DNA of 48,253 nt from Lama guanicoe (lineage: Eukaryota). The stretch lies in contig MU053539.1 of NCBI GenBank assembly GCA_013239625.1, positions 1 to 48,253 on the forward strand, given 5' to 3'. How positions within the stretch are numbered: position 1 is the stretch's first letter; every line of letters begins with the position of its first letter. Shown here piece after piece: positions 1 through 40,589 of this stretch. The translations under genes and the position numbers were made by a program. Under the pieces are notes generated by a model. It had not been told where the DNA came from and ran no database searches. It saw nothing but the letters and a program-made list of their open reading frames with translations.

Positions 1-49
1 AGACTCCCAGTTGCCACTGATGATCATTAATACTACTTTGTGATAAATT
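1..49 (+). repeat. Left copy of exact 49-bp inverted repeat (truncated by window start)
   Basis: agactcccag...gtgataaatt is the exact reverse complement of 6074-6122; first mismatch is at 50/6073. Confidence 0.97.
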
Positions 50-297
50 TCCTGAGAGGTTTCTCTTCAAAATGTGTATTTCAAGTATACCAGGCTTCCT
101 TTTTGCATCATTACTTTAACCTCCGTCTTAAAGTCAGTTGTATATTTTAAAAATATTTTCATATTCTTAGTCGTTTTACTGAAAAATAATAAAGACATAC
201 TCTAAAATGTTGAGTTTTTGCAAATCTTGAGTTCACAACATAAGTTACCTATGATTTGCAGGCAACCACTACACTACAGGTTTATGAAATCAGGGAT

Positions 298-360
298 TGT
301 GGTCTTTGTTTTTCATGCTTGATACCTTGCACTTAGTGGGTGCTCAATAAATAGTTAGAT
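298..360 (+). mobile_element. L2 3' tail remnant
   Basis: gcacttagtgggtgctcaataaatagttagat resembles the L2 3' end (gcacatagtaggtgctcaataaatatttgttgaat). Confidence 0.6.
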
Positions 361-1937
361 TTTTTTAAATGTTACTGTTCTGGTCATTAATAAAAATAAA
401 ATCAATGTTTATCTACCCTCAGTTATAATATAGCATTAGTTTTCTCCCTGATTTTTCATTTGTCCTTTTCCAGTGAGAATTTGGCTATGTCATTAACATT
501 TTTTAAAAGTCAGTTTTTCTGACCTTAGCCAGGTCAGTTGACTTACTGAAAGACACTTATCTTGGTGACAGAGTTGGGACAGAGCCCAAGTCTTTCCAGT
601 TTCAAGGCTGTTAGCTTCATTCCATATTTACTAGTGAGGTTTAGGTGAATAATCTGTAGTACAGAATTGCCTTGGTAGAGATGGTGTTTCTTTATTGTTA
701 CTCCATGTTTTCATCAGTTGTCAATATACTGGGTGTTTTTCCAGAAGGACCCTGCCTCCAACCAGACTTTGGAATGTATCCTAAGGTTATTTGGGCCAGC
801 GGTTAAAAGCATGGTGCTTTGGATTATTGATTTGTGTCATGTAATGTACCCTAAATATGAATTTAGGGGCTGAATTGCCAACATGGGTTGAATTAGGAAC
901 CTAGTCATTGGACAGTAAGCAGTATGTCGGTATTAAGCCTGATCTGATTGTGGTGGTCCTTCTCGTCCCAAGTCTGGCTAATACTTCTGATGCTGATTTG
1001 TCACCCCTCACTGAAATGAAGTCACATATTTCTTACCAAAAAAATTTTCATTTTAAAGAGTGTTACACACAAATTATGAGAATTAATTTATGCTAACAAC
1101 TTGTTTACCATAATGTTGTCATTTGTTTGGACATGAAGTTTCTTCACTAATTTTTTTCTTCCTGGAAGGCCTTGGGCCAGGGTTCAAGAGAACTTTGCTT
1201 CCAGTTCCACCTCTACTAGGCTTACTTACTTTACTTTCTGAATCCCTTTGCTTCTTTAGGTTTGCTGTTTCCTTACTTTTAAGAAAAGGTGTCTGGCTAA
1301 GTTAGTGGTTAATTCAAACATAGATGGGCATCCAGGAAAGGTGTGGTGAGAGAGCCCATGTTCCCAGTACAGTAATGCCTCTTTTTTCTTTCATGGAATT
1401 GGAATTTTTTTTTCCAGGAAAGGCTTATTTTATTTTACCAAAGATTTTGAAATTCACTGGCCTACATGATCTCTTAAGATTTCCTGTGTGCTCAGTCTCC
1501 CAGACATGAAAGGGAGGATGTAATCTCTAAGCTTATGTCTCCAGCACTGTCAAGCTATTATACCGGCCCTGGTCTTAAGGAAAAGATTATTTGAAAGAGA
1601 AACTTTTATCTTTTTTAAAGCTAATGTATTTTTGCTCACTTATTAAATAGACTGTGTGCTAACTAGTTAAATAAGTGCACGGGCTGCTACAACACTGAAA
1701 ACCAAAATCTATATAAATTTGAGCCTTTTTTCCCCCAATTAATCCATTTTCCATCAGATATCTTTTTCCAAACAGCAAGTCATAGTTTTTCCTATATTTG
1801 TGTCCTAATAACATATTAGGTTGTATTGTTTTGGCACAGACAACCTTTGCATTGTAAGGATGTAGGGAAATTCTTTATTCCTCCTAAAATGATGATTCCA
1901 GAGCTTGTGCTCTGATCTGTTACAAAATCATGTGTCC

Positions 1938-2100
1938 AAGATTTATTGAGTATATACTATGTGTCAGGCACTGTGCTAAGTCCTTTATATGTACTGGAGT
2001 CTCATTTATGACAGAAACCTTATGAGGCAGATTACTCTAATTATCTGCATTTAACAGATGAGAAAGAACACTGCTGCTTAGAGAGATCACTGCTAAAGAT
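1938..2100 (-). mobile_element. MIR SINE remnant
   Basis: atttattgagtatatactatgtgtcaggcactgtgctaag...cattTaacagatgagaaa...gcttagagag matches the MIR core in antisense. Confidence 0.7.
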
Positions 2101-2279
2101 GTCTATATATTAACCCTATGACAGTTCTAGGGACAGATTTCCCTTGAATCTCATTACCAGGAACACCGGTACATCCCTTGAGAAAATGGTTTGTTTTGAT
2201 CCAATGGTGACTGTAGTTCATGCAAGTAATCCTATAACCAAAGCTGCTAGAAAATTTGGGTCAAATTACTGGTAGAATT

Positions 2280-2698
2280 TGTCAGGAAAAAAATATACCT
2301 ACTGTGATTCAAATACAAGTTAAAGGCTTTGTCCAGCTAATGTGCATCACCTTAAGACCAGTAAACTATCTGAAGTGAAGCTGAACTGGGGTTTTGAGAG
2401 GGAAAGGAGAAGAGAAACTGCTATTGCAGTTTATGTAGCTACTACAAAAATGTGGTTGGAATGGTTGGGAATTTCTTCCACTTTTTCATGCCTCTTGCTT
2501 GCATCCTTGGTACAATCTAATTCCAGCAGCTGTCAGATCAGTTCTTTGAGAGTGGTTTTTGTATGCCTTGTTGTTTGTTAAGTTTCAAGGGTGGCAGGAG
2601 GTAACAAAAAAGGTAGAGGAGGGAAGAGAAGAGAAGAAAGTTCAAGGAGGCAAGGTTTGAAGCAAGGAAAATTAAGGTCTATTTTAATTATTTTTACA
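2280..2698 (-). mobile_element. Probable ERV 3' LTR
   Basis: On the minus strand it begins TGTAAAAA just after a purine tract (aagaggagac), has a TATA-like cataaa near 2430 and ends ttttttcctgaCA. It lies directly downstream of the env remnant. Confidence 0.55.
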
Positions 2699-2849
2699 GT
2701 GTCTCCTCTTAGACAAGATGAACTCCTTTCATCATCAGCCAGTTCTTATTGGAGAGGAAACAACAGAGATGTACCAGGTCCAGGAATTGAGTCAAGAAGG
2801 CCCCCATCCATAGCTGGAAGAGCAGTTTGTGCTTTGGTTTTCTGTTCTT

Positions 2850-3573
2850 CAGTCATAGCTTGGATCCTCTGCTTGGACAGGACAGTGCTCCCAGTCTTGA
2901 TTAGATGTGATTGGGTGCATTTTGATAAGGATTCTAATTAGGATAAAAAGAAAAATGATCACTAGCCCTTGGGGGAAAAGTACATCCCCGGGACTATATC
3001 CCGGTTGAGACTGTTCAGGGAAAGGGATCCTGTTCTCAGCCACCCAATGATGACCATCGGTCCCAGAGGTCAGGACTAGGTCATTCACTCCACGAATGTT
3101 TTGGCTGGCTTCACGGGTGTGATGATTTCCCCAAAAAGACATAAGAAAGGTCTGGGTGGATATATGGGTGGCAGTCATCATTGACAACTGCACAAGGGCA
3201 CCCCCTGGGTGTCAGGGTGATTTCTAATGTGAGTAGATGATGGACAACAGCCTCTGGAGTTCCAGCATTCCTTGAGTGTGTCACTATTTTGGGTCTTTGA
3301 AACTGTAGTTCCTGTCTGTGACCCACCTTTAGTTTTTTTCAGGGTTATGAAGTGTACCAGATGGAACATACCCTGGAGACATCCTCCACTAGCCAATTCA
3401 AAATTTCCAGGCAGTGTTGTCCAAGAATACTTTTCAAGTTTGTTTATTGTGATGGGTCATAGCCTGCAGATTTTTCATCAAGCTCCATTTTAGAGAGACA
3501 AAAGTGACAAAACTGCAGTGTTGGTCCTCCATAGCCCATCTGATTGGAGGGAACACACAAATTTCCTCCAATA
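2850..3573 (-). pseudogene. Degenerate endogenous retrovirus env (TM subunit) remnant
   Basis: Minus-strand peptide AVVHHLLTLEITLTPRGCPCAVVNDDCHPYIHPDLS (ORF 3111-3326) resembles the immunosuppressive domain plus CX6CC motif of gamma-type Env. The hydrophobic QGLVIIFLFILIRILIK (ORF 2849-3193) follows in another frame. Frameshifted, with stops. Confidence 0.65.
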
Positions 3574-4200
3574 TCTTTTTTTTTAATTGTGGTGAAATAT
3601 ACATTAATAACACTTACAGTTTTAACCATTTTAAAGTGTATAGTTCTTTGGTATTAAGCACATTCATATTGTTGTGCAATCATCACTACCATCCCTCTCC
3701 AGAACTCTTTTGATCTGCAAAATGGAAATTCTGTACCAGTTAAACAATAACTCGCCCTTCTCCTCTCCCCCCAACCCCTGGTACCACCATTCTGTCTCTA
3801 TGAATTTGACAGCTCTCATATAAGTGGAGTTATACAATATTTGTCCTTTTATGGCTGGCTTATTTCACTTAGCATGATGTCCTCAGTGTTCTTCCACGTC
3901 CCCAACGTTCATCCAGGGGATTGTCCTTGGGAGATTGTTGCAGCATGTGTCAGTTTCCTTCCTGTTTAAAGTGGAATAACACTCCATTGTGTCAATTTGC
4001 CGCATTTTGTTTGTCTATTCATCTGTCATCGAACACTACTGTGAATAGCACTGCTATAAACATGGGGATACAACTATCTGTTCGAATCTCTGCTTTCAGT
4101 TCTTTTGGATAGCATACCCCGAAGCAGAATTGCCAGATCATATGGTAATTCAATGTTTAATTTTTTGAGGAATCGCTGTACTCCCAATGTATTTCTTCTT
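3574..4200 (-). mobile_element. Old L1 (L1MB-like) 3' end inserted into the ERV remnant
   Basis: ttttaattgtggtgaaatatacat...ggcttatttcacttagcatgatgtcctc...agatcatatggtaattcaatgtttaattttttgaggaa are L1 3'UTR/ORF2-end motifs in antisense. Confidence 0.85.
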
Positions 4201-4220
4201 TCTTTTTTTTTTTTTTTACA

Positions 4221-4475
4221 NNNNNNNNNNNNNNNNNNNNNNNNNNNNNNNNNNNNNNNNNNNNNNNNNNNNNNNNNNNNNNNNNNNNNNNNNNNNNNNN
4301 NNNNNNNNNNNNNNNNNNNNNNNNNNNNNNNNNNNNNNNNNNNNNNNNNNNNNNNNNNNNNNNNNNNNNNNNNNNNNNNNNNNNNNNNNNNNNNNNNNNN
4401 NNNNNNNNNNNNNNNNNNNNNNNNNNNNNNNNNNNNNNNNNNNNNNNNNNNNNNNNNNNNNNNNNNNNNNNNNNN
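4221..4475. other. Assembly gap (255 N)
   Basis: Run of N, flanked on both sides by poly-T followed by ACA. Confidence 0.99.
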
Positions 4476-5704
4476 TTTTTTTTTTTTTTTACACAATCTC
4501 CTGTTTGTGACTATGGTTGTCTCAAGGTTTCATAGAAATGAACTGTAGTAACCAGACCATCTTTAATATTTGATACCTGAATGAGAGCATACTGTTTGGC
4601 ATACTGGTCAGTCAAGGAATTTTCTTCTGTCTTATGAGTTTGTTTCCTAGTCTGAGCTTTGATTATATAGATAAGACTACATAAAAATAAAATTATCCGT
4701 GCATCTGAAAACCAAAAACATAATTAAAAGGCAAAAACAGGAAAAGTATTTGTAATATATATGACAGAATGGGGGTAAATTTCTACACATACAATTGTTA
4801 AAAACAATAAGCTAATTATTTTTAAAACATTAATAAATGCTAGTGAGGGTGTGAAAACAAAGAATTCTCATAGACTGTCGATGGCAAAACAGATGGGTAT
4901 TCTGTTTTGGCAGTGTGCAACGAGTGTGAAAAGTGTTCATGCCTTCCAATCCAGTAAATCTACTCCTGCAAATCTATTAAAAACAATCAGAGATGGTGAA
5001 TATATATGTACAAAAATATTGTTTTCATTCTTCTGGAGGGATATTGTTTGAAGAATGTTTCTGTGTTTTCCTCGTATATATTTTCTTGACTGAATTTCCC
5101 TACAAATTACTAGTGTGAGTTTTCTATCAAAAAGCAGAAATAGGTAGTTGTAGAACAGGTATCTGCTGTAAGGAAATTTAAAGAGTTCCTTTTAGCACAC
5201 TCAGGCTTGTGGCTTGAAAATTTGTACATACTACACAACTTACACAGAATACTGAAGATGGCAACAACAATACTAACAAGGTATCTACAAGTGCCAGGCA
5301 AAGAACGTGTTGGGTAATTGATGTGACCATCACCTCTGAGGCACATGTAATTACCACCCTCGTTTTCTGCGCAATGGAAACTAGCATACCTAGAAGGAAT
5401 CTGAGGGGTCTCCGGACCCCTCAAATAGGGCCCCTCCCTGGTCTCTCAGACTCTAGATTGCACACTGATTTGCAAGATGCTTTCCTGCTCCCAATACATG
5501 AATGAAGTAAAATACACACTGGGGAAGAGGGTGAAATAGCGAGCATAAGTTTTTTAAACGTGTAATAACATAGTTATTGCGCAAAATAAAACGCTAAATG
5601 AAAGGAGGAAAAAGCCCACTAGGAAACGTTTCATACAGTATACCAGTATTATGACATGATAACAATATTTACAAAAAGAGGAGCATCTGAAAGAAATCAG
5701 GTAC

Positions 5705-5792
5705 TGATTTATGCATTCAACAAATGTATATAAAGAACACACTGATAGGCAGTGTTTTGTTGATGCTGCAAATACAATGCTGGGCAAAAACC
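5705..5792 (-). mobile_element. L2 3' tail remnant
   Basis: atgcattcaacaaatgtatataaagaacacactgataggcagtg...gctgcaaatacaatgctgggcaaaaacc is an antisense L2 tail. Confidence 0.6.
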
Positions 5793-6073
5793 AAAAATTA
5801 CAGCATCTGTCTTTAAGACAGTTACATTATATTTCCCTTTGAGGTACAGGGGTGGGGTTATTCCTTCTTCCTATGGCAGTAATTAAATCCACCTTTTTCA
5901 TCTTTTTAGGAACAGAAATGAAAGAAAAACATTTTAAGTATTTTGAAATGCTTTTTGAACACGTAACTCATGTTATATCTGATACTAACAAAAGATGGTG
6001 AAGTCACAATGCAATACGAATCTCATTTTGTCTACAATGCACCGAACGTTAACAAATGAAAATTCTCTAAGGT

Positions 6074-6122
6074 AATTTATCACAAAGTAGTATTAATGAT
6101 CATCAGTGGCAACTGGGAGTCT
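6074..6122 (-). repeat. Right copy of exact 49-bp inverted repeat
   Basis: aatttatcacaaagtagtattaatgatcatcagtggcaactgggagtct is the reverse complement of 1-49. Confidence 0.97.
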
Positions 6123-6369
6123 TCTTTACTATATTTTATCTGTCCTCCAAATTTTCTGCACTGAGGATGAGTGACTGGCCTAACTGAAGAATACAGTAGT
6201 AAAGGTCCATAAACTGAAAGCAACTTGGGGAAAACCAACGACAAGGCCTTTCAGAAAAGCAAAAGTACAACTTGCTAAGGAACCTAGTCAGCCCCTTAAC
6301 AGAAAGAAAAGCCAAACTGAAAAGAAAAAGGCTTTAGTCTCCAGGCAGACAGTTTTCAGAAGGGTCCCT

Positions 6370-7130
6370 ACTGAGGCGCACAGATCCAGTCTTAACCGGC
6401 CGGCCGGCACAGGCGCAGAAGGAAGTCGCCAACTCTTTTGGAAAAGGGTCCCTGGAGTTTTTTCAAGCGCGAAGGGCGGGGGAGAAAAGAGCGGCGGCGT
6501 TACACGGCGCAACACTGCCACCTGCAGGCGAGAGAAACAGCGCTACAAGCCAGAGGAAAACAAATCCACCTTTTCCGCTCCTTTTCCAGGCAGAGTGCTG
6601 GAGAGCGTGGATGCGGAAGGTAGGAGGCATGCCTACGAGGACCACAGGATGAAAGGGAACCGGCCGAACCGTCCCCATCACCGCAGCCTCACCTAGCCCC
6701 GCTCCGTAACCATAGCAACAGCAGCCGGAAGTCCGGGCGCACAGGACTTCCCGGAGGCTACGCTCCGATTGACGGGCTCTGGGCCTGCGCACAGGAGCGC
6801 AGTGAGGTCCGTGCCAGGCTCCCTGCCCGGGTCCGCTAGAGGTTTCCTCGGAACCGTGCTGTGAACTGTGGGCTGAGGAAGCAGATCGGTGATGTCCTGT
6901 CGCCGACTGTCCCAGCCGCCCGGACCAATCCCCTGGTCATTCTTCTCCGACCGGCCCCGGGCCTGGGAAGGCGCTCGCCGGGGGAACACCGTGCGCCTCT
7001 CAGCCCTCACTCTTCGGATCCGTCCTGGCGATCCCGGTGCCCACTCACAGGGTCAACCAGGGGCCTCTCTGTCCTCAGCGATGTTCTCCTCCTCCCCAGC
7101 CGAGCATCCCCCTGCCCACCGTCACCCCCT
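6370..7130. promoter_or_regulatory. CpG-island promoter with RFX X-box and ETS site; probable minus-strand first exon ending at 6693
   Basis: Dense CpG. gtaaccatagcaac (6706-6719, RFX-like), ccggaagt (6725-6732, ETS/GABP) and tgcgca/gcgcag half-sites (6786-6802). Minus-strand donor CTAG|GTGAGG at 6693/6692. Confidence 0.8.
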
Positions 7131-7493
7131 GGGCATCAGGAAAGCCCCGCCCCTCCATGATGTCCTTTTTCTAGCAGTGCAGTCTCCTCACCCGCAACAC
7201 CAAGTCCTGCTCATCCAGCTACCTCCCTCTAATGCCCCTGCGTCGACAGCCTCGACCTCCTGGAAACATCCAGTCCACGGACCCCACAGCCTTCCACGCC
7301 GTCCACCAGGCCCCTTCTTACTCAGCTTACCCAGGGCTGTAAGCTCTCTCCCACCGACACACGTCTTGTGCTCCTTGCCCCCTCCTCCCTAATCGTTCCC
7401 TGCCTGTCTGAGCACCTAAGCATTGATGACAAAACGTTAAAAGCTCACGGAATTGTTTTTTATCTTACATCCATGACCAGGAGGGAATCGCCT

Positions 7494-7570
7494 TTCACCT
7501 ACCTGACCTACTACACCTACCTAAATACTCTCACATACCTAAACTCACCTACCTAAACTATCACCCACTA
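7494..7570 (+). repeat. Short degenerate tandem repeat (tcacctacctaaac-like, ~5 copies)
   Basis: ttcacctacctgacc, acacctacctaaata, tcacatacctaaac, tcacctacctaaac, tcacccacta. Confidence 0.75.
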
Positions 7571-7849
7571 GTAACCCTCCTCCATTCTACTGACCCCACC
7601 CCCCCACCCCCCAGTAACTCCTGGAGAAGACAGAAGCAGTCCCGTGGGACTTTCTCAGAGCTTTTCTGCCCTGGCACTCTGCCGCCCCTCTGCACACATG
7701 CTCCTGACTGCACCCAGCCCCTCACCTCTGCCCAGGATCCCATGCCTTTCACCTCCTCGGGGACTTTGCTCCTGCAAAGGTCACTCCTCTCTCCTGAACC
7801 ATCACCTGCTGCTTCACACGGGAGCGCTGCACAACAAAGGGGAAAACGC

Positions 7850-8110
7850 ACCCCCTTCACCAGGCCATTCTGCGGCTACTGGCACATTATCTGCTGCCCT
7901 CCAGAGCACAACTGCTTCAACTTATGCTCACACCATTCTCTCCTCGACCCCCTTCAGTGGAACTTTCGTCGCTATCACTCCGTCGAAACTGGTCTTGTCA
8001 AGGCCGTCATTAGTAGCCATACTTCCTGATCCCAAAGACACTCTTCACTGCTCGTCTTACCCAGCATCTCAGGCACCAACTTTGGCACTGTGACCCTTCT
8101 GTTATTTATC
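7850..8110 (+). mobile_element. L2 ORF2 remnant
   Basis: cccttcagtggaactttcgtcgctatcactccgtcgaaactggtcttgtcaagg resembles the L2 reverse-transcriptase region (QSGFRxxHSTETAL). Confidence 0.6.
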
Positions 8111-9559
8111 CCTTTGTTTCTTTGTATATTTGGGTGGCGGGGGAGGCTTGTGTGACTACGTATTTTAAAACGTGCCCCTCCTGAACTGCATAGTATGGGA
8201 AGTCCCGGGTCAAATGAATGACAAGCCAAAGAAAAGAACGTCCATCCCAGTCACAGTGAGGAACGGCCCAGAGAGGCAGTGAATGGCAGGCAGAGGTGAG
8301 ATAGCTCAGACAAGGAAGGTGTGTCAGGAAATAAAGGGGAGCACCAAGGACAGGAGGACTCACCCCATCACACGTGGGGCTCATGGGAGCACACTCTGCA
8401 CCAACAGCCTCTTCAGGGAGAGGGATGGCTGGGGTTCAGGAACAGAGTTTTCTGGAGCTGCTTGTGGTTCCTGCTGTGGCGGAGGTGAGATCCCAGGGGT
8501 CTCGCTCCCGGAGGGAGGAATGTGCACAGTGGCTGGGTCTTGGGGAAGCTGGAGCAGGCAGGGGGCTAGGTGACCCTGCAGCTGAGACTGTGGGGTGGAC
8601 AGCCTTGCCCAGGGTGGGATGGACGATGAGACCCAGAGGCAGAGAGGGTCAGCAGATGCCAGCAGAGTGGTTGAGGCTGAGTCAGCCAGGGAGCACGGGC
8701 TCCCCACCAAGAGCAGAGAGACAGGAGTGCAACTTTGCCCAGCCTCCCCTAGGGGCGGTGCAGGTCAGCATCACCATCTGGACCCAGGAGACGAGAGTCG
8801 TCCTTCCCTCAGGGACCCCCGAGGCCACCGTGAGCAACATAGGTATCCCCTTTGCACGTCACTGCCAGACTTATGACACGTACCCCTTGCCCATCGTGGA
8901 AAGAAGTGGTGTGGAGGTGGGTTGGAAACGGGAGACCGAGTTATTCACCCAAACAGACTGAGCATTTGTGTTATGTGGACCATTCACGTGACTGCATCCG
9001 ACCACACTTACCAGATTAGGAGTAAATTCTAACCTAGGGTTTTCTTTGCCCTTACTAACCAGTTTGGAGGGTGGGCATTCGTGATGAAGCTCAGGTCAGT
9101 CAGGGAGAATAAATAAACCAGAGCGCCCGTGTGGTCTGAGTAACATGAGTGAGCCTGTGCTGCCAGCATCCCATCCCGACCGGCTCCTGCTCTGACCATG
9201 GGTCACAGAGTCTGGAGTGGGGCCCAGAGGGAGATGATGGAAACCTGCCTGCAACTCCACTGCTGCTTTGAAACCACTCCCCACCCCCATCCCAACCCCC
9301 GCCGCCCTCAACTTGAAGAAACACCTGTGAGGCTCATCCCAACTCTCCACTCTCATCTAGTCAACAGTCCTCAGGGTTGTGAGGAATTTTTGGAACCTGC
9401 ATCCTGGTTTTCCCCCTCTTTGGGGGAACAGACCATTACAAACCCCGAAAGCACCTCTGCTTCTACTACCCTCTGCTTCTTTGGTTCCTCTCAAGCCAAG
9501 CCTCTTGGAAGTGTAGACGCCAGTAGCATCCTTGCTTGGTTTACCTCTTGTTTCCTGCT

Positions 9560-10110
9560 CAGTGTCCTCCCATCCGTGGACATCCCCTGCCTAACGTCTC
9601 CAAAGAGCTCCATTTGTCAAGCCGTCGTATCCAGTGCCGTCTTGGCCACAGTGACATTCCTTTTTCAAAATGCTTCCCTTTGTCAGAATCTGTGACAGGA
9701 GTCCACCCTGGTTTCCTCCTACCTCTCAGTCCACGACTTCTAAGTCTCCTTGTTGGTCCATTTGCTTTGATCTCCTCCTACATCTGGGTTGTTTCCCCCT
9801 GGCTTCCAACCCCTGCCCTCCTCTTCTCCTCTACACGATCCTTGGGTGGCCAGTTCCCCCCCGCCCCCGAGCTTTTACCCACCTGGCTTGTTTTCATCTC
9901 TATCCCCTTGTATGCTTTTCATCTCTATCCCCTTTCCCATTACCAGGTCTACCAAAGTAGGTTTAACTGGGCCCCAGAGTCCCCGGAGGCAGAGACTTAA
10001 GGGGTATCTGCACTCAGATCTGCCACAAGCCCTGCGAATCTGCTGGTGGCCCCAAACCAGTGTTTCTCCTCTCATGGATGGACACGGTCACCCACCCAAA
10101 TCCCTAAACC
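9560..10110 (+). mobile_element. L2 remnant
   Basis: Pyrimidine-rich L2-like blocks, e.g. ggccacagtgacattcctttttcaaaatgcttccc...ccctggtttcctcctacctctc. Confidence 0.55.
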
Positions 10111-10534
10111 AAACTCCCGGGATGCTGCTGGGTGTGATCGGCATCAGGCCACGACTGCCGTGGGCCGGCTCTGGAAAAGGCTAAACCGTGATCTTCACGT
10201 TGCCACGGATGGGGGTGAGTTTCCTTGTGAGGCCTTCTTCTTGGAAGACACACTGCATGAGCCCTGAGCACCGGCCCAGGCCCTGCTTTGGGTGCGCGCC
10301 TCAACAGGCTCTCTGAGGAGGGGAACCTGGGCTTGTAACATGCCCGAGAGAGTGAAAGCCTTGCGCTTTGCAAGAACTCGACACACAACGTGTAACCCCG
10401 GTGAGTCAGGACGCAGCAGTGTAAGCCCACCATCTGGGAACGTGCAGATGAGGATGCGGAAGAGACCCCTGAGAGAGAGAGAGTTTGGGCAGGTGGGTGT
10501 CCGTGGGTGTGCACGAAACAAGGGATTGCGCGAT

Positions 10535-10540
10535 TTTATT
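10535..10540 (-). terminator. Candidate poly(A) signal (AATAAA) of a minus-strand transcript
   Basis: tttatt on +. On the minus strand it is preceded by a U-rich, UTR-like stretch (10560-10900) and followed by a GU-rich ccttgtttcgtg. Confidence 0.35.
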
Positions 10541-11376
10541 TTTCCCAAGAAATATGCTGGTGCTGTTTGGCCTTATCTGAGCACGGGAGTTAATTCGATG
10601 ACATAAATTATACCAAAAAGTAAAGAAATGCAACTCAGCACACTCAGCAGATGAGCCGACAGCTGATCCTTCTACAGCAACGGTAAGATTCTTGCTCATC
10701 TTTCATTTTAAAGGAACCAGTCTGCTCTGTCCCGTGCTGTTACCTCTACCACGTTTTACGAATGTTTTGAAGTGACGAAGCACAAGGGATCCTGACAAGA
10801 ACTCAAAGTACTAAGTTTGATGAGCAAATGCAGGGCTTTAAGTGCAAAATTTTGCTTTCAGGAACGCGGAGAAGAGTAAGTCCAGGGTCAGGTGTAAGGC
10901 ACCCATTTACTGGACATGTTCTCCCTTTCCTCAGCCCAAGATACCTGCCAAGCATAGCGGATCACGATGAAAACTTGCTTTCCTTCTAAACAGGAGCCTC
11001 GAAGTCTGATTTCAGATTTCCTCCTATAAGGATGGTTCTGTTTCCACAGCCGCAATCCCAGCCGCAATCCCGGCTTTCATCAGGGAAGTTTTCAAATCAT
11101 GCTCATGTCTGGGCCACATTCCAGACCTGCTCCTTCAGACTCCCTGGGGATGGCGCGCCAGCCCCTGTTCTTCTAAGGTGTCCCCAGGGGAGATCTGAGG
11201 CCCAGCTGAGGTGGAGAAGCATCATCACATGCTGCTTCGTCGTCCTGCCTTTAAAGAGAATCTTGGACTTCCAAGCCATAGTTGTTAGTCATGAAAATTT
11301 TTGAAATTTCATTGTGTCTTCTCATTCCAGAGCCGTTTTTGACATATTTAGACAATTTCAGGGACTCGGGAGGGTG

Positions 11377-11657
11377 TCAATGCCCCCGAGTCTCCTTTTT
11401 TACCACACAGCCAGGCAGGTGAAGGGGAGGGAACGGGCCTCGGTCCTGGGGGAAGAAGGAGGCTGGAGTTCCGTTGTCTTGGTTACCGCTCTGCTGAGCA
11501 TCCTCCCTGGTCGCTGAGCTCACGCAGGGGGCCGTGTGTGTGGACGGGGGCGAGGGGGAACAAGCCTCTCCCCGCGCTACAAGTATTTCTGCAACCAGGT
11601 ACTGGAGCTGACGGCTGAGATCAGTTACCAGGGAAACAGAAGCCTGGGCCCTGGGAT
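11377..11657 (-). other. Candidate terminal exon with an open frame of 92 codons to TGA (unidentified product)
   Basis: Acceptor ttttccattcttctcAG|at. The phase-1 frame reads (D)PRAQASVSLVTDLSRQLQYLVAEILVARGEACSPSPP...KKETRGH*. Confidence 0.3.
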
Positions 11658-11944
11658 CTGAGAAGAATGGAAAATCACCTCAGTACGATGTGAGACGCAG
11701 GGTGGATTACAGGAGGCTGTCCGGAGCCACTGAATTGTGCTCGCACAGAGGGCACCTGTGCGTGAAGACACACAGACACACAATTCTGTTCTACGTGCAC
11801 AGTGACCCCGTCTGGCGGGAGCATCTTGGACACATAGAGGACGCAGGACCCCAGGACATGGAAATAGAGGGGCGGGGTGGGTCCTTATGTTACAACAGCA
11901 ACAGCATCTCCTCCCCTGCATGACTTACCAGGACGTTTGCATTA

Positions 11945-13210
11945 TCTTTTCTAAACTGCTTCACTGAGGTATAATTTATACACCAGAAGATTCGCCCATA
12001 TAATGGGGCCAATGCAGTGACTTTTAGTCAATTTACACAGCTGTGCAACTGTCACCACAATCCAGTTCTGGAACGCTGCCAGCACCCCAGTAAGGTTCCT
12101 TGTTCCCACCGGCTGTCAATCCCCATTAGCACCCACAGGCCCAGGCGTCCTCTAATCTCATGTCTGTGTCTGTAGATCTGCCCTTTCTGGGCATTTCATA
12201 TAAACTGACTCAGGTACTAAGGGGGCCTTCTGCCTGGGTCCTGTTACACATCAGACTGCTTCCGTGGCTCGCCCATGTCTTAGCAGAAATCAGAAGTCCG
12301 TCCCGTTCCATCCATCACTGGCATTCTGCCGTATGAGTATTGCACCCCCTGTTTATCCGTCACCAGCTGACGGACTTTTAGACCGTTCCCACTTTTCTGA
12401 GATTACGAATAATGCTGCCGTGAACACCAAAGTACGGGTACTTGCGTGGACACAGGTTTCATTTCCAGTGTCTCCATATTTCATTTCTTGCCCTGCATGA
12501 CGCACAGCCTAGGACCTTCAGTCCGTGCTGGACACCCGTGGCTGGAGCAGGCATCCCTGTCTTGGTCTGGAGCCCCAGGGGACAGCCTTCATTCTCACCC
12601 TCTGAAATATGACGTGACGGGAGCTGGATATTTCCCGGGAGTGACCTTCATCAGAATGAGGCTGCTCCCTCCTATCTCGAGTTGGCTGAGCATCTTTATC
12701 ATCAGCAGCTCTTGAATTTTGTCCAATGCTTCTTCGTTGTCTTTCTAGATGACAGGTGGTTTCCGTCCTTTCTTACATCAAGGTGGTGGTTACCTTAACG
12801 GAAGTTGAACATTAAACCAATATTGCAATCCTGGGATAGAGCTCGACTGATTATATTGCATAGCCCTTTGTGAATGTTGCTGGATTTGGTTTGCTAACCT
12901 TTCGTTGAGGATTTATGTCTCGCTATCCATGACCAATACTGGTCTGTTCTTTCTTTGTGATGTCACTTCTGGTATTGGCAGCAGGGTAACGTTGTTCTAG
13001 GACGAGTTAGGAAACGGTCCCTCCTCTAGTCTGGAAGAGTCTGTGGAGGAAGCGTATTGTTTCTTCCTTAACCATTTGACAGAGCTCACCGACGAAGCCA
13101 GGGCTTCCTTTTGTGGGGAGGTTTTGAGTTGAATGATTGGATCTCTTTTCTTGCTACAGGTACATTCAGATTTGCTATTTGGCCCTTGTACTTTACGCTG
13201 ACTCCATACC
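11945..13210 (-). mobile_element. Old L1 fragments (3'UTR 11945-12470; ORF2 ~12640-13210)
   Basis: gcttcactgaggtataatttatacacc... and gctggatttggtttgctaacctttcgttgaggattt...gcagggtaacgttg are antisense L1 motifs. Confidence 0.8.
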
Positions 13211-16606: not shown

Positions 16607-17170
16607 CTGGATCAACAGAAATTGAAGCCGAGAGATGTGTTCTAGCCACTCATTTCCAATATTTTGTTTCCAACAAACATATTGGTGGCATCACAGCAGA
16701 TACGCTACTCTGTGCGAGCACCTCGCCCCATCGTCACTCACAGGATTTATCGGGTTCTGAGCGCCTGCGGGGCACCAGGCTCCAGGACCTGGGCTTTGGC
16801 AGACTTTGTGCACACAGGAATGTTCCCTGCAGGAAAACGGTCCTCAGAGAGCTCGCAGTCCAGTGGGCAGGGAGCCCTCCTGAAGACAGTGGTGACACAA
16901 GCGTCAGGAGAGTTGTGGCGGGCGTGAGCCAGGGGATGCTGGGACACAGAGCAGAGCCCGGAGCGCAGCTGGTCAGGAACAGCTTCGCCTGGGGCTGGAA
17001 TACTATCTAGTATTATTGTCCCCATTAGCAGATGAGATAACTGAGGATCAGAGAGGGTAAGCAAGTCACTCAAGGTGACACAGCTAGGTGGTGGTGGTGA
17101 CCATTTTTTGCATACGTCTGCTAAAACACAAAGTTCTCTGCACTATTCATTACACCAATCTCTCCCTCTT

Positions 17171-17513
17171 CTTCTTTTTTTTTTACATTTTTTTTATTGA
17201 TTCATAATCATTTTACAGTGTTGTGTCAAATTCCAGTGTTCAGCATGTTCAGCACAATTTTTCAGTCATTCATGGACATATACACACTCATTGTCACATT
17301 TTTTTCTCTGTGACTTATCATAACATTTTGTGTATATTTCCCTGTGCTATACAGTGTAATCTTGTTTATCTATTCTACAATTTTGAAATCCCAGTCTATC
17401 CCTTCCCACCCTCTACCCACCCCCCGGAACCACAAGTCTGTATTCTCTGTCCATGAGTCTATTTCTGTCCTGTATTTATGCTTTGTTTTTGTTTTTTAGA
17501 TTCCACATATGAA
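17171..17513 (-). mobile_element. Young camelid-type L1 3' end with 15-bp TSD
   Basis: Poly-T then acattttttttattgattcataatcattttacagtgttgtgtcaaattcc...tagattccacatatga. The TSD caatctctccctctt is present on both sides. Confidence 0.9.
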
Positions 17514-17544
17514 CAATCTCTCCCTCTTAATGTTGTCACACTTT

Positions 17545-22859: not shown

Positions 22860-22995
22860 TTTTTTGTTTTTCTGTTTTTGGACAGGGAGAGGTAATTAGG
22901 TTTATTTATTTTTAGAGGAGGCACTGGGGATTGAACTCAGGACCTCGTGCAACGCTAAGCACATGCTCTACCATTTGAGCTGTATCCTCCTCCCC
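22860..22995 (-). mobile_element. tRNA-derived SINE (camelid vic-1-like)
   Basis: ggtaattaggtttatttatttttagaggaggcactggggattgaactcaggacctcgtgc...ctctaccatttgagctgtatcctcctcccc, with TSD tgcaaggg. Confidence 0.9.
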
Positions 22996-26224: not shown

Positions 26225-26915
26225 TAAAACGCCCCAGGGACTCAGAGGTTTCAACCTCTGGAACATAGAACCAAAGACAGAGCAGACCTCACTCTGGGAC
26301 CCCAGTCTCCCGCCAGCTCTGCAGCATCATACTCTGAATACAGGCTCACAAATACCCCAGGGACTGCACACTATGAGTCACAAAACCCCAGAGACATCAA
26401 TGACATGCTAAGCTCAGTTACAGACCCACAAAACAGCAGAGAGGGGACCTCACTGCATTGGACACACACCACCAAACAATCCAGTGAACTGAAACTCCTA
26501 CGGGCTCGATCGATGAGGCCAGAGACACAAAATCAGCTCAGACATGACAGGTCTACATGCATTTTAGCAACTTCATAACCTGCAATGCAGAAACCCAATA
26601 GCTCCCAGGCCTCACAGCCTGGACACAGAAGCCACACAATCACAGAGCTCACACTCCCGGGCACAGACACACACAAACAGCTCAGAGCACTGGTGCCGTG
26701 GAGGTGGAGAGCGCGCTCACAACGTTACGTGCAGCCAGCATCGAAGAGACCTCAGACTGTGGTACCCCAAATCCCACCAAGCCCAACGTTCACAGCCTGA
26801 GACACCATAAACTCCCAAAGCTCCAGCAGCCTCAATCCCTGGCACACAGACTTACAGCCAGGTCAGAGATGACACACTCGGTAGGCAGAGCCACCAAAGG
26901 GTCAGACACCTGCCA
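26225..26915 (+). repeat. Degenerate ~38-bp tandem array, cluster 1
   Basis: Units include cagctctgcagcatcatactctgaatacaggctcacaa, tagctcccaggcctcacagcctggacacagaagcc and tcacagagctcacactcccgggcacagacacacacaaacagctcagag. Confidence 0.7.
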
Positions 26916-28380
26916 TCCTGTGTCAAAGAAACTTTGTCATCTCACAACTGAGGGTGTGGCCGCCGAGAAGCTCACTTCCTCACATGCCCATCATTCCAGC
27001 TGCAGACCCGAAGCTCTCTGGAGTCCAGCCACCTGCCTAGAGCCGTCACCACACGAATGGCACTGGGTGCCAGCAAAGGGACATTCATTCCCCTGCCCCA
27101 CTGAGGCAAGTGTGAGTCCGGAAAACACCTTCGCACGGCTCTGTGGCAGCATCCATCAAAATTTAAATTCCATCCTGCACCCACTCTCAGCTTCATGAAA
27201 AGAGGGACACGTGTCAGTCGTATTCTGCAATGTCCCTCCACATTTAGAATAGTGTGAGGCACCCAGTCGGGACTCGAGAGATGTCTGTTTAGCCAAAGGA
27301 TTGTTTGGACCAGCAGTTCCACTGCTATAGTGTCTTAAAGAAATATTCACACCTGCAGAGAGCTGTGTGTACAGTGACAGCAGCAAATTTCTGGGGGTGG
27401 GGGGAGTGCTAAATGTCCAGTAATAGGCATTGACCAGTGGAAGGGTAAGTGAGAGATGAAGTGTTCATATTATACCACGGAGCACCACTAGCTGTGAAAG
27501 ACAATGAGGGGAACCACTTTGACTGGCCAGAGAAGTTTCTAAATGAGAAGCGAGAAGTACTCCTACTCACCAGCGTCTGGGTGCGTGTGTCTACGTGATG
27601 TTTTTCCATGCAGAAAACACGGAATAGAGGGAAACACCTAAACTGACTCCAGTGGTCGCATCTGGTGATCAAACTGATGGAGGCAAGATCTGGAGTGCTT
27701 ATTACTCCTTCTGGTGTGGCTGACTCTATTTCCCAAAATGGCCCAAAATATATCCCAAGGTACATCCCTTTCTTTAAAAATTTTTTTTATTCAACTGTCA
27801 TGCATGTAGCACACTCACCCTTTGAATGGTTTTTTACCATATTCACCATGCTGTGCAACCAACCCCAATGCATAATCGCAGAACGTGAGCAGTCTCTCCG
27901 CAACGTCCCCTCCCACCGGCCCCTGGCACTCACTAACCTGCTTTCGTCTTTATGGAGATGCCTACTCTGGACATGTCATAAAAACAGAATCTTGCACTAG
28001 GCGGCCTTGTGTGTCTGCCTTCTTTCACTTTGCTTCATGTGTTCAAGATTGATCCATGTCGTAGCATGTATCAGTCCTCTGTTCTTTTTGATGGCTGAAT
28101 AATATTCTATTATACGGATATACCACTGTATTTCAAACTGTATTCATTAGCTGGTTGGCGTTTGGGCTGCTTGCACTCTTTGATTGTTGATTCATGCTGC
28201 CAGGAACATCTGTACGCAAAAGTTTTTATGTGAATTTATGTTTTCACACAATTTGGGACATACTTAGGCATAGAATGGCTGAGTCGCATGGCAACTGTGT
28301 GTGTAACTTTGAGGAACTGTCAACCTGTTTTCCACAGCAGCTGCAACATTCTGCATTCCCACCAGCAATGTCTAAGAATT

Positions 28381-28473
28381 AAAAAAAATTTTATGGCATT
28401 TCTGGGAATTGAATCCAGAACCTCGTCCATGCTAAGTAAGCATGCACTCTACCACTGAGCTATACACCCTGCC
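28381..28473 (-). mobile_element. tRNA-derived SINE (vic-1-like), nested in L1
   Basis: ctgggaattgaatccagaacctcgtccatgctaag...gcactctaccactgagctatacaccc. Confidence 0.85.
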
Positions 28474-29087
28474 ACTGAGGATTTAAACTTTCCCACATCT
28501 TCCCAGACACTTGTTACTTACATTTTAAAAATCATATCCTTACTAGCGGGTACCATGTTGTAATTCATTGTTTTCCATCTTGGCTTCCCTATGACTAATA
28601 TTTTCAAGCATCTTTTCATGTCCTTACTGAACATCTGTGTATGTTTTATAGAAACGTCTATTCAGCTGCTGAGTGCATTGTTAATTGGGTTCTTGGTCTT
28701 TTATTATTAGCTTCTAAGAGTCCTTTATACTTTCTGGGTCGTGGTTCCTATCAGAAATATGAATTACAAATATTTTCCCACATTCTCTGAGTTGTGTTTT
28801 CACTTTAGGATGGTACCCTGGAAAGCACATTTCTTGCTGAAGTCTCTTTTACCTAAGTTTTCCTTTATTACCTGTGCTTTTAGTGTCACATCAAAATCCA
28901 CTGCCTAAACCAAAGTCATAAAGATTGACTCCTATACTCTCTTCCAGGAGCTTTATTGTGTTAGCACTTCCATTTGGATTCTGATCCACTTTGAGTAATT
29001 GTGTCTGGCAGTATGAGGCTGGAAGGCAAATTCAGTCTCTTGCATGTGGATATCCAGTTGTCTTGGTACCATTTGCTAAAAAGACTG

Positions 29088-29476
29088 TTTTATTTTTTTA
29101 AATTGAGTTATAGTCAGTTTACAATGTTGTGTCAATTTCTGGTATAGACTGCAAGTTTTCAGTTATACATGCACATACATATATTCATTGTCGCATTCTT
29201 TTTCGCCGTGACCTACCACAAGATCTGTATATATTTCCATGTGCTATACAGTGTAATCTTGTTTATCTATTCTACACGTGCCTGTCAGCATCTACAAATT
29301 TCAAACCCCCAGTCTATCCCTTCCCACGCCACTCCCACATGGCAACCACAAGTTTGTATTCTATCTGCATGAGTCTGTTTCTGGTTTGTATTTATGTTCT
29401 TTTTGTTGTTGTTGTTGTTAAGATTCCAGATATGAGCGATCTCACATGGTATTTTTCTTTCTCTTTCTGGCTTACT
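29088..29476 (-). mobile_element. Camelid-type L1 3' end nested in older L1
   Basis: aattgagttatagtcagtttacaatgttgtgtcaatttctgg...gagcgatctcacatggtatttttctttctctttctggcttact, with flanks aaagactgtt/aaagagtgtt. Confidence 0.88.
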
Positions 29477-30408
29477 AAAGAGTGTTCTTTGCCATTCAGT
29501 TCTTTTGGCACTGTTGTCAAAAAGTCACTCATCACAGATACATGGACTGAGTCCCTGACTCTCGATTCTATTCCACTGATCTACATGTCTACCTTCACGC
29601 CAGTACCACACTGTCTTGTTAACCAGAGCTTTGTTATACGTTTTGAGATTGGACTGTATGAGTCCTCCAACTTTGGTTTTCATTGGTAAGGTTGTTTAAG
29701 CTATTCTGGGTCCCTGGAATTTCTATATGAAGTTCAGGATCAGCCTCTCAACGTCTAACAAACGGCAGGTAGAATATCAATAGGGATTATGCAGAATGTC
29801 TGGATCACTTTGAGGAACGCTGCCATCTTAACAGTTCATGAACACAGAATGTCTTCCCATTTACTTATGCTTTCTTTAATTTCTACTAACTGTGTTTTGT
29901 AATTTTCAGTGTACAACTCCTACACCTCTTTGGTTCAATTAACTCCTAAGTACATGTTCTTTTCATCATATTACAACTGGAATTGTTTTCTTCATCACTT
30001 ATTTGGAGTGTTCACTGCTAGCGTACAGAAATACAATTCAGTTTCGTCTATCAATGGTGGTGACGATTTCACAGGTGTATACATATTCCCAAACTCATGG
30101 AGAAGTACATATGCAATATGTACGGCTTTTTACGTGTCAAGCATACCACAATTAAGTGGTTTAAAGGAACAGAAATGAAAGCAAAATAAAGGCATTCCCA
30201 GAAAAACAAAAAGTCAGGAATTATGTTCCTAGCAGAACTGGCTCACAAGGAGAACTCAAGAAGTTCCTCAGGCTGCAGTGAGTGAGTCCAGATGTTAATT
30301 CGCATCCCCATGAAAAACCAAAGAGCACAGGTGAAGGTAATTATAGAAGTGCAAATAACTTTATGAATACACATTTTTACTCTTTTCGTCCCGTATGTAA
30401 AAAGCAGT

Positions 30409-31068
30409 TGTACATCACCAATTGTCAGAGAAATGCAAATCAAAACTACAATGAGATACTACCTCACACCAGTCAGAATGGCCATTATTAAAATGTCCAC
30501 AAGTGACAAATGCTGGGGAGGGTGTGGAGAAAAAGGAACCCTCCTTCACTGTTGGTGGGAATGTAGTTTAGTGCAGCCATCATGGAGAACAGTGTGGAGA
30601 TTTCCTTTAAAAACTAAAATTAGACTTACCACATGATCCAGCAATCCCACTCCTGGGCATATATCCAGGAGAAAACATAATTTGAAAAGACACATGCATC
30701 CTGATATTCACGGCACCACGATTTACCATAGCCAAGACATGGAAATAACCTAAAACTCCATGGACAGATGACTGCATAAAGAAGTTGTGGTGTACTTCTA
30801 CGATGGAATACTACTCAGCCATGAAGAAGAATAAAATAATGCCATTTGCAGCAACATGGATGGACCTGGAGAATGTCATACTAAGTGAAGACAGAAAGAG
30901 AAATAAGAATACCATGTAATATGGCTTATATGTGGAATCTAAAAGAAAAAAAGGACACAAATGAACTTACCTACAAAACAGAAACAGACTCACAAACATA
31001 GAGAACAAACTTATGGTCACCAGAGGGTAAACGGTGTGGGAAGCGATAAATGGAGAATTTGAAATTTT
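30409..31068 (+). mobile_element. L1 ORF2 C-terminus and 3'UTR fragment (younger family)
   Basis: ORF 30433-30636 [20 protein letters not shown]...[23 protein letters not shown] is the L1 ORF2 cysteine-rich end. Confidence 0.92.
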
Positions 31069-31074
31069 CACTTG

Positions 31075-32560
31075 TTGGGGAGTGATGGCAGTGTTCGCTG
31101 TCTTGGCTGTGATGGTGGGTTCTTTGGTTTACACATCTATCAAACTTCATCACATTGTATATCTGAAGTATGTGTACTTTACTCTACAGGAACCATACCA
31201 CAAGAACGGCGTTAAAAAGTGAAATAAAAAGTAAATAATAGAATAAGGAAAATAAAAAGCATTTGTATAAAACAACATCATATAATTGACTGTTGTCACA
31301 ATACCATATATAATGTAATATATTTGCCAATAACGGCACAAAGGCGGTGGTTGGGAGCAAAACTATGAGGTAAGGAAACAAATCTGGATGGTGACTCAAA
31401 TCCACAAGAACAAATGAAAAGAAGCTGAAATAGTGACAAAGAAGGTTAATATAACAGAAGTTAGAAATATACTCGATATTCTGTCTTATACCAGCTTTCT
31501 AAAGATGTAACATTACGTATAATGTAATAATGATAAGAATATTAATGGGATGTACCCGTTATAGATGTACTATACGTAACAATACGAGGAAAAGAGGGAA
31601 ATGGGAAGAGACCAACATAGGAGTAACGTTTCTCTATCTCATTAGAATTCATATACATCTGAAGCTGACTGTGATCAATTAAAATGCTTATGGTAGCCCT
31701 GGAACAGCTAAGGCAATAACCTAAAAAACAGTAAAAAAAAATCAGTAAAGAAGTTAAAATGCTACATTAGAAACTATCCATCTAATGCAAAAGAAAGCAG
31801 TAAATGAACCAGAGAACAAAAACACACGAGACACACGGGGAAAAAAGTATAACAGCAGGCTTCAGCCTGCATCAACATGAAACGTGAACAGATAAAATAA
31901 CCCAATCACAAGGCAGACGTTGACAGACTGGATGAAAGAAAAAAAAAAGATCCAACTGTCTGTTGTCTCCAGAGGACACAGTTTAGATTCAAAGATACAT
32001 AAATTTACCATACAACCTAGGAATTCTATTCCTAGACAATTCTACCCAAGAGGGATGAAAGCAAGTCAAAATACCCATACTCAAACACTCCGCACTTTTA
32101 TTCATATGAAGCAAACCTAGACACAACCCAAATACTCAACAACCGGTAAATGGATGAAAGAAAAACAGGGACACCCACACAGAGCAATACTACACGGTAA
32201 GAAAAAAGGAAGTACTGATGCACGCAGCAGCATGGATGCATGCCGAGCATGCCAAGCCAGAACAGCCGGTTTAGAAGCCTACCGCATTATATGATTTCAT
32301 GTGAATGGAATTCTAGAAAAGACAGAACTTCAGGCACAGAAATCTATCAGTGGTTTCCAGGCTATGGGAGTGGAGGAAGGAGTCTGATGGCACATGGCAC
32401 AAGGGAATATTTTTCTGTATTTTTATTGTGGAGGTGGTTACACAACTGTATATGCTTGTCAAAACTCTACAAACTGTGTCCTTTAAAAGGTTCACTTTTA
32501 TTGTATGAAATTTTATCTCAATTACCTCTGACTTTTTTTTAAAAAGGAAAAGGAACTTTT
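31075..32560 (+). mobile_element. Old L1 fragments (inter-ORF, ORF2 start and 3'UTR pieces)
   Basis: cccaatcacaaggcagacgttgacagactggatgaaag...gatccaactgtctgttgtctccagaggacaca (endonuclease start) and tatgatttcatgtgaatggaattctagaaaag (3'UTR). Confidence 0.75.
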
Positions 32561-32639
32561 AGGTAAAATATTTAAATACTGGTTACCGTATCCACCTACA
32601 GCGTGATCTCATAAATACGTCTTATTTCGGAATTCTTTG

Positions 32640-33445: not shown

Positions 33446-33458
33446 TCATATTCATTTC

Positions 33459-33465
33459 ACTCACA

Positions 33466-33503
<38 letters not shown>
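33459..33503 (+). repeat. (CA)n microsatellite
   Basis: Direct reading of the sequence. Confidence 0.97.
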
Positions 33504-33506
<3 letters not shown>

Positions 33507-36508: not shown

Positions 36509-36619
36509 TTATATACTCATGTTCTATAATCATCCAGTGACAACTTGATTTCCCATCATTATACAAATCCTATGAAGAGGTCATTAGAGGTCTAATTTCC
36601 TAGAGAAATCTGCACCAAG

Positions 36620-40585: not shown

Positions 40586-40589
40586 TAAC

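Follow-up and report, generated by a model that had tools for sequence, protein, structure and literature searches.

Inverted Match at the Contig Start

The window considered here is the whole 48,253-nt stretch of contig MU053539.1 from Lama guanicoe (GCA_013239625.1), and it opens with 49 bases (1-49) that are the exact reverse complement of positions 6074-6122. As the first-pass annotation had claimed and self-comparison of the window bears out, the match reaches base 1. BLAST carries it somewhat further inward, to 1-58 against 6122-6065 (96.6%, E 1.6e-20) and to 1-65 against 6122-6058 (92.3%). Where the repeat is eroded at its fringe, the 16 bases at 50-65 include 11 that are complementary to their partners at 6073-6058 (binomial p ~0.001), and 25-nt bins across 76-400 match the mirror side at 4-11 of 25 bases. 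Setting aside interspersed-repeat copies and one CA microsatellite, the 49-nt match is the sole exact repeat of at least 20 nt in the window. Because de Bruijn assemblers can end contigs in a k-mer-sized overlap, bases 1-49 are likely such an overlap left at the contig end, the length of the match being most likely set by assembly and not by biology. They would then be the visible stub of a left arm, and 6074-6122, which they mirror, the inner edge of a right arm. Large mammalian sex-chromosome palindromes have been defined as two copies in inverted orientation with identity >99% and arms >8 kb (PMC8327919); 1-49 and 6074-6122 are two copies in inverted orientation, identical at 49/49 bases within the window, which is a short span, and the putative left arm in the window comprises these 49 bases only.

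A Unique AT-Rich Spacer

Between the two edges lies a unique AT-rich spacer (66-6057; 37% GC, CpG o/e 0.19), which contains old interspersed-repeat relics and no Pfam-supported ORF; the relics of its interior we take to be L1-, L2- and MIR-like. It is interrupted by an assembly gap of the short-read type (4221-4475, 255 N), each flank of which is a T run followed by ACA, and which may stand for overlapping contig ends or an un-assembled young L1 tail.

The first-pass annotation had described the two sides inward of 49/6074 as diverged mirror homologues, and had argued from a sharp step between 100% identity and a decayed, kilobase-scale mirror. That argument is wrong, as no mirror homology is detectable beyond base 65. 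The best local mirror score of 66-1500 against 4501-6057 was 1675, compared with 1540±172 (maximum 2381) in 100 Markov shuffles and 1541±177, again chance level, in 100 block shuffles, and controls in direct, reversed and complemented form scored 1469-1546. The global mirror score of the spacer sides (-47.3) was reached in 83-126 out of 200 shuffles, depending on which of four block sizes was used, and nhmmer --max returned nothing at E<=10 for the mirror sides. In a power simulation, indel-bearing copies of 55-75% identity reached 8,165-38,807, 150 of 150 lying above 2,400. As the tests are negative and had full power for identities as low as 55%, they largely refute a decayed mirror in the spacer. 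Alignment of 50-1150 with 5250-6073, the failure of which the same annotation had named as evidence against itself, was likewise not significant. The four anchors picked out by eye were equalled or bettered by 100% of 300 null pieces for the L2 tails (~300-360 vs. ~5705-5790), 87% for 1099-1122 vs. ~5258-5281, 68% for 704-728 vs. ~5454-5479, and 9% for 454-495 vs. 5563-5603; moreover, when 1536 tiles are ranked against the left L2 tail, its claimed partner comes 180th. The unique spacer that a palindrome carries between its arms is found here at 66-6057, free of mirror homology.

Compositional Step Near the Edge

GC content and CpG o/e are 37.4% and 0.19 in 50-6073, versus 52.0% and 0.41 for 7151-27780, the CpG difference having a Fisher p of 4e-26. 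The GC change point falls at 6337 (6220-6396), which is 150-320 bases (~260) right of 6074, and a CpG island coincides with it; with the island removed the change point is unchanged (6214-7174), and 6074-6380 has only 40.7% GC. Such a step could come from an ordinary isochore edge. When repeat copies lying right of the edge were aligned with their homologues in the spacer, the former had the higher GC in 9 of 10 cases, with 146 versus 106 weak/strong differences, and this repeat-matched test discriminates weakly because the same two spacer pieces were reused, four of six query pieces had no match, and in a test on six repeat copies a W-to-S lean was present in the spacer copy too (25 vs. 20). 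GC is higher in the presumed arm than in nearby single-copy DNA, 52% against 37%, the extent of the arm being assumed. In primate X palindromes arms have 46.3% GC versus 41.2% in flanks, and spacer GC is not significantly different from arm GC (PMC8981503), hence the 15-point contrast observed here exceeds the typical case.

Candidate Promoter and Gene Searches Right of the Edge

The DNA from 6123 to 48253 would be the right arm, with both arms collapsed into one, and its outer end may precede 48253 by far; its computed GC is 52% at 7151-27780, 40% in the L1-rich 27781-39300 and 53% at 39301-48253. The CpG island at 6381-7150 (64% GC, CpG o/e 0.76) is probably, on its sequence features, a two-way promoter, in which we presume, by eye, ETS-, RFX- and NRF1-like motifs. 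On the minus strand, a splice donor at 6693 is suggestive of a non-coding first exon aimed into the spacer. The plus-strand stop-to-stop frame at 6184-6696 (170 codons) is probably not a real protein, and it served to search other mammals for orthologous DNA.

Searches for genes covered the window, beyond which the arm may continue. Pfam returned no match at cut-off for 593 ORFs of at least 38 aa (best E 0.0045), a search that short exons and orphan genes would escape; the set consisted of all 305 non-repeat ORFs of at least 56 aa and 288 of the 294 of 38-55 aa, leaving out six ORFs in an LTR-like stretch and ORFs mostly inside hand-drawn repeat blocks. A KRAB/zinc-finger motif scan gave one chance match, inside an L1 piece, homologue searches with 6466-6936 (-) and 45693-46307 (+) gave none, and atlas searches with P0001 and P0011 gave no usable match. 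A splice-site scan, using approximate weights, revealed no convincing chain of coding exons. Two tRNA-like Rfam matches (22916-22989 and 28394-28468) are read as SINE heads. Orthology with the human palindromes FAM156, EOLA, USP51, CENPVL and others (Tables S1-S2) is supported by no ORF when set beside the gene structures presumed for them. A DNA transposon with terminal inverted repeats was rejected, the interior, where a transposase or young sequence would be expected, consisting of old relics with no Pfam match.

Neither the 49-mer nor a 36-base piece of the promoter had any exact match in JGI metagenome contigs (0 each), and plasmid blastn with 5900-7200 gave none. The stretch 4500-12000 is wholly or partly present in 20 of the 24 listed sequencing runs, all stored as contigs, its content being 0.97-0.99 in 11 DNA runs of three organisms, 10 of them marked as possible sources of the DNA, 0.89 in 3 runs of a fourth organism, and 0.41 and 0.36 in two RNA runs of one study. 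Its recovery across runs shows that the stretch is real DNA; junction words make up <1% of its words, so that the test is uninformative on copy number.

A Likely Counterpart in Reindeer

In a long-read (HiFi) reindeer assembly, two consecutive gene models (CAI9180578.1 and CAI9180579.1, 160 vs. 216 aa) are identical over 160 of 160 residues. The annotation was made without isoform modelling, and both models may represent one locus. Their source is likely the CpG-island promoter that lies just within the edge. The link from reindeer to 6.4-6.8 kb of the window is provided by P0002, which matches P0009 at 82% over 79 aa and the window at 48.5% (E 1e-9), P0009 itself matching the window directly but weakly (26%, E 3e-4). 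A second collinear match, of residues 170-215 of CAI9180579.1, lies at 11089-11226 (+) with 52% identity (E 2e-8), and presumably may reflect a shared MER5-like relic. The reindeer copies are 100% identical to each other versus 26-52% residue identity to the window; the duplication itself may be orthologous. The doubled promoter is likely present in reindeer too, in which case the structure would be old.

The reindeer pair lies on a 157.9-Mb (~158-Mb) contig. With cattle chromosome lengths as we assume them, X is the sole reindeer chromosome of ~158 Mb to remain. Cattle chromosomes 1, 2, 5, 6, 8 and 9 are split in reindeer (PMC11010878). Since the other cattle chromosomes of that size are split, the contig should, by size and exclusion, be X, and on this basis the locus is likely X-linked.

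A Probable Collapsed, Gene-Converted Palindrome

Taken together, position 6074 is probably the inner boundary of a gene-converted palindrome, of which the second arm has been collapsed and the 49 bases are the assembly overlap. The spacer between the arms, as far as its letters tell, is ~6 kb of unique DNA and not a decayed mirror. The suggestion of the first-pass annotation that 50-6073 is a spacer, with a near-identical and possibly collapsed arm left of base 1, stands as the best-supported reading on grounds which that annotation lacked, namely the step in GC and CpG at the boundary and an orthologous reindeer promoter that seems to be doubled, and its variant of an unconverted mirror flank largely falls away.

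In such a palindrome, the arms would be alike enough for a short-read graph assembler to merge them; the contig with the left end of the spacer would open with one k-mer-sized arm piece, and at the right end it would continue into the single collapsed arm. Indeed, out of 39 primate X palindromes, short-read assemblies had just 10 correct (PMC8327919). The arms would pair within the chromosome and copy onto each other through gene conversion between the arms, staying identical up to a sharp boundary, where a few tens of bases converted only rarely would form the eroded fringe. Over time, conversion would raise GC and preserve CpG in the arms and not in the spacer. With a copy of the CpG-island promoter in each arm, identical promoters would face the spacer from both sides, and the spacer may flip by inter-arm recombination with the promoter layout unchanged. 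To judge from the reindeer, the duplication would be older than the camelid-ruminant split and homogenised in each lineage. Camelids and deer separated some 60 million years ago. That the locus is an X palindrome common to both for ~60 million years, with non-coding arms that bear a two-way promoter and lie 15 GC points above the spacer, is a tentative and rather unlikely proposition as a whole.

A rival account, improbable to us, is that an assembly or library artefact such as a chimeric read end, or the junction of a flipped 6-kb allele in a heterozygous inversion without long arms, added 49 bases of 6074-6122 to the contig start, the DNA right of 6074 being single copy. The match does stop at base 1 precisely and has roughly the length of one k-mer, an assembly gap lies just 4 kb off, and imperfect microhomology such as the 11/16 fringe is generally known to be common at inverted chimeras and inversion breakpoints; yet neither the 15-point GC step within ~260 bases of the partner site nor the two identical adjacent promoter models in the HiFi reindeer assembly is predicted by it. 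An eroded fringe and a 20-kb GC/CpG excess from the edge are also not what would be expected of a real but short (hundreds of bases to a few kb) or recent inverted duplication that covers the promoter and owes its identity to youth, combined with an unrelated isochore edge and an independent reindeer pair, and duplication of the same promoter independently in two lineages is less parsimonious. We regard this as quite improbable, although the identical bases visible are 49 only, reindeer identity spans only ~0.5 kb of coding model, the models end differently (160 vs. 216 aa) so that the copies could differ within 5 kb, and database records include several related variants of this region.

The full model of the first-pass annotation, in which the spacer is the inner section, decayed and unconverted, of an older, longer mirror duplication, could draw on the existence of the 16-nt fringe, on the 454-495 vs. 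5563-5603 anchor, which aligns in 27 of 42 columns, and on primate spacers that are sometimes former arm sequence (PMC8981503). However, with local, global and nhmmer tests at chance at the power given above, that anchor equalled by 9% of null pieces, and many other tiles resembling the L2 tails better than the tails resemble each other, it is extremely improbable.

Significance

Good maps of mammalian X palindromes exist for primates and mice only. In the pig X paper widespread ampliconic genes are not in evidence, and our literature search turned up no paper on X palindromes of camel or alpaca. Having an inner boundary that is known, together with a strong step in GC and a deer counterpart that is likely, this locus would offer a direct test of arm persistence under conversion, and it could test how far GC-biased conversion goes, a question left open by earlier work (PMC8981503). 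If true, a camelid-deer palindrome would be more than twice the age of the 12 palindromes conserved in primates, and what keeps it alive could then be a regulatory element instead of a family of testis genes. On the practical side, the assembly likely under-counts copies here, which would make variant calling right of 6074 unreliable, and a hidden palindrome can reveal itself through an inverted match of k-mer size where a contig begins.

Comparison with Known Palindromes

At FLNA-EMD (human P24), Caceres et al. 2007 reportedly described GC-rich X inverted repeats that are conversion-homogenised across eutherian orders around a flippable middle. Those repeats are common to eutherian orders, whereas sharing here is suggested by one deer; the FLNA-EMD spacer is ~38 kb with two genes (PMC8327919 tables), compared with ~6 kb and no coding exon found here.

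The primate X palindromes P1-P26 (Jackson et al. 2021, PMC8327919) have near-identical inverted edges and a unique spacer, as here, and human spacers of similar size are known (P2 7.4 kb, P4 8.4 kb, P11 10.8 kb; PMC8327919 Table S1) against ~6 kb at this locus. They resemble it further in their GC-rich arms (PMC8981503) and in being commonly collapsed in short-read assemblies (PMC8327919). The GC contrast here is larger than the primate median. A protein-coding gene lies in the arms of 21 of 26 primate X palindromes, a common and not a defining trait, and none of the arm or spacer genes of Table S2 was recognised in the 593 ORFs here (PMC8327919).

In the mouse X (Swanepoel et al., 10.1101/800185) and pig Y (PMC4691746) palindromes, paralogous arms are closer to each other than orthologous arms, boundaries fade over tens of bases like the 16-base fringe here, and clone-based or long-read assembly is needed; both arms were sequenced there, unlike here. 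The pig Y examples are lineage-specific and the mouse X palindromes are traced over only ~3 million years, whereas the locus described here would be common to camelids and deer.

Inverted edge and spacer

As the first-pass annotation had stated, the window opens directly with one side of an exact inverted match, 1-49 being identical to 6074-6122 once the latter is reverse-complemented. BLAST extends it beyond the exact 49 to 65 bases of inverted match at 92.3%, the 16 bases of this fringe (50-65) being identical at 11 positions (p about 0.001), and from base 76 on an ungapped mirror gives 4-11 matches per 25-base bin, which is the background level. The annotation had further placed diverged mirror homology over a kilobase inward of the edge, and this failed every test, local, global and nhmmer. 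Comparison of 66-1500 with the reverse complement of 4501-6057 gave a best local score of 1675. Markov shuffles (100) scored 1540±172, and the three orientation controls 1469-1546. A permissive global score of the mirror alignment was equalled or exceeded in 83-126 of 200 shuffles, and nhmmer --max found 0 matches of mirror homology in the spacer (66-6057). The local test had power, since copies simulated with indels at five identities from 75% to 55% (30 per identity) every time scored >8,100. For the four anchors picked by eye, between 9 and 100% of null pieces did at least equally well, and in the proposed pairing of L2 tails the partner ranks only 180th of 1536 tiles for the left tail. Because all kilobase tests of mirror homology failed, what is left is an exact edge of 49 bases, a fringe of 16 and unique DNA over about 6 kb, and a decayed inner mirror is very improbable.

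Composition

The spacer side (50-6073) has 37.4% GC and a CpG o/e of 0.19, against 52.0% and 0.41 in 7151-27780, with the CpG island left out (Fisher p 4e-26 for the CpG difference). The best GC change point lies at 6337, positions 6220-6396 being within 3 log-likelihood units of it; removing the CpG island leaves it unmoved, with a range of 6214-7174. Farther on, an L1-rich stretch of 40% GC (27781-39300) is followed by one of 53% (39301-48253). A repeat-matched comparison lends modest support to a GC excess in the putative arm: 146 differences were weak in the spacer and strong in the arm against 106 of the opposite kind, and arm copies were GC-richer in 9/10 alignments (p 0.014), which reuse two spacer pieces, 4 of the 6 query pieces being without a match. 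In a six-copy test all copies lean in the same direction, spacer copy included.

CpG island, promoter-like stretches and repeats

A CpG island (6381-7150; 64% GC, o/e 0.76) begins about 300 bases inside the edge and contains a predicted splice donor at 6693 on the minus strand. In the predicted first intron, 6460-6490 forms an invariant block in the alignment of promoter-region relatives, conserved in the records of other mammals, and on the minus strand it resembles what we take to be an E2F site beside a CHR-like hexamer. The Pfam cut-off was reached by none of 593 ORFs of 38 aa or more, taken largely outside repeat blocks. The stretch 4500-12000 is nearly complete in 14 of the 24 sequencing runs listed, 10 of these being marked as potential sources of the DNA; two RNA-seq runs from reproductive-tract samples contain 41% and 36% of its sampled words, a hint of CpG-island transcription, though these words may stem from DNA.

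CpG-rich promoter-like stretches also occur near 40.8-41.1 kb and 45.8-46.0 kb. These regions, 5 kb apart, have an old direct paralogous piece in common (41327-41455 and 46253-46380; local score 36 against <=19 in 300 shuffles), which suggests that a first-exon region was duplicated in tandem long ago. Three patches (26400-26900, 40150-40575 and 43855-44010; families D11 and D15) consist of a degenerate repeat with a common core of ~12 bases, two of them lying immediately left of promoter-like regions. A short young L1 3′ fragment (17156-17528) has a clean target-site duplication, some 16 bases long, on its two sides, related tails lie at 29088-29443, 30895-31066 and 36171-36508, and 44060-44520 reads by eye as LTR-like, with a poly(A) signal and a U5-like end. 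The repeats are presumably L1, L2 and MIR-like relics with tRNA-derived SINEs, and the DNA is mammalian.

Relatives in other mammals

A 170-codon frame (6184-6693), probably not a real protein, served as a probe for orthologous DNA. It found one relative (P0001, E 1.8e-5) among 1.84 billion representatives, and a profile of two sequences picked out 10 of 1165 candidates, nine being ENA records with plus-strand matches to 6274-7175 and the tenth a Svalbard reindeer gene model (P0009). The ENA records (P0003-P0008 and their clusters) divide into several related variants of the promoter region, which may come from different species or from several diverged copies of it in a single one. The reindeer model matches the window weakly (26%, E 3e-4) and shares 82% identity over 79 residues with P0002, a relative that matches the window at E 1e-9. 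The tail of the longer reindeer model matches 11089-11226 (52%, E 2e-8), order and strand conserved; it looks like what we take to be a MER5-type relic, and thus could be a repeat match.

The reindeer cluster consists of two gene models whose accession numbers follow one another, CAI9180578.1 (160 aa) and CAI9180579.1 (216 aa). They are identical at 160/160 residues, and each is placed on a 157,939,627-base contig. An internal repeat (residues 11-65 resemble 80-139) is present in both, so the copies were made alike after it arose. The published assembly is described as haplotype-resolved HiFi from a male animal, its annotation listing EvidenceModeler and no PASA step (PMC10514459), and EVM is described as having no direct isoform modelling (PMC2395244). 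We infer that both accessions come from this annotation and that their successive numbering reflects adjacent positions; if so, the pair would be two neighbouring identical loci with no gene model in between, as the gene-free spacer predicts. By the cattle chromosome lengths that we assume, no autosome near 158 Mb is left in reindeer. Cattle chromosomes 1, 2, 5, 6, 8 and 9 are reported as split there (PMC11010878). On these two grounds the contig bearing both models is likely the X.

Palindrome reading and alternatives

With the inverted exact edge, fringe, unique spacer and GC step all observed, we read the window as probably a spacer plus one collapsed palindrome arm. A 255-N gap at 4221-4475, with a T run and ACA on each flank, is as in short-read scaffolds. 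Where unique DNA meets a collapsed repeat, a de Bruijn assembler leaves one shared k-mer at the contig start; if base 1 is the contig end, the 49-base match would be such a leftover of the spacer running into the arm. Should base 1 be just a cut through a longer sequence, the left arm may have been assembled upstream, the biological meaning being unchanged. A match running to the first base could also mark a chimeric end or a heterozygous inversion junction, which beside the GC step appears unlikely. A short or young duplication would likewise give an exact edge, the GC step then being a coincidental isochore edge, and we regard this as rather improbable.

Under the collapsed-arm reading, two arms would have merged into one in the assembly, the remaining arm presumably running rightward from its inner edge at 6074, and arm-to-arm conversion with GC bias may have acted; we infer likewise X linkage and the age of the palindrome. 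In reports on related structures, collapsed mapping doubles depth over palindrome arms (PMC8600007), and 10/39 primate X palindromes were correct in short-read assemblies (PMC8327919).

Comparison with known palindromes

In primates and mice, conversion is reported to keep paralogous arms closer than orthologous ones (PMC8327919; 10.1101/800185). Arms of primate palindromes average 46.3% GC against 41.2% in flanks, their spacers being intermediate without significant difference from arms (PMC8981503); the direction of the contrast in the window fits, but its size is unusual. No human orthologue from Table S2 (PMC8327919) was recognised among the 593 ORFs, and a search of largely open-access literature returned nothing on camel or alpaca X palindromes. 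By orientation, unique spacer and GC excess, the locus is a candidate X palindrome rather than an established member of that class. That it is an old palindrome common to artiodactyls, its arms without a coding gene, is a doubtful possibility. The structure would work like the X palindromes of primates and mouse, and its spacer size falls inside the human X-palindrome range (Table S1, PMC8327919).
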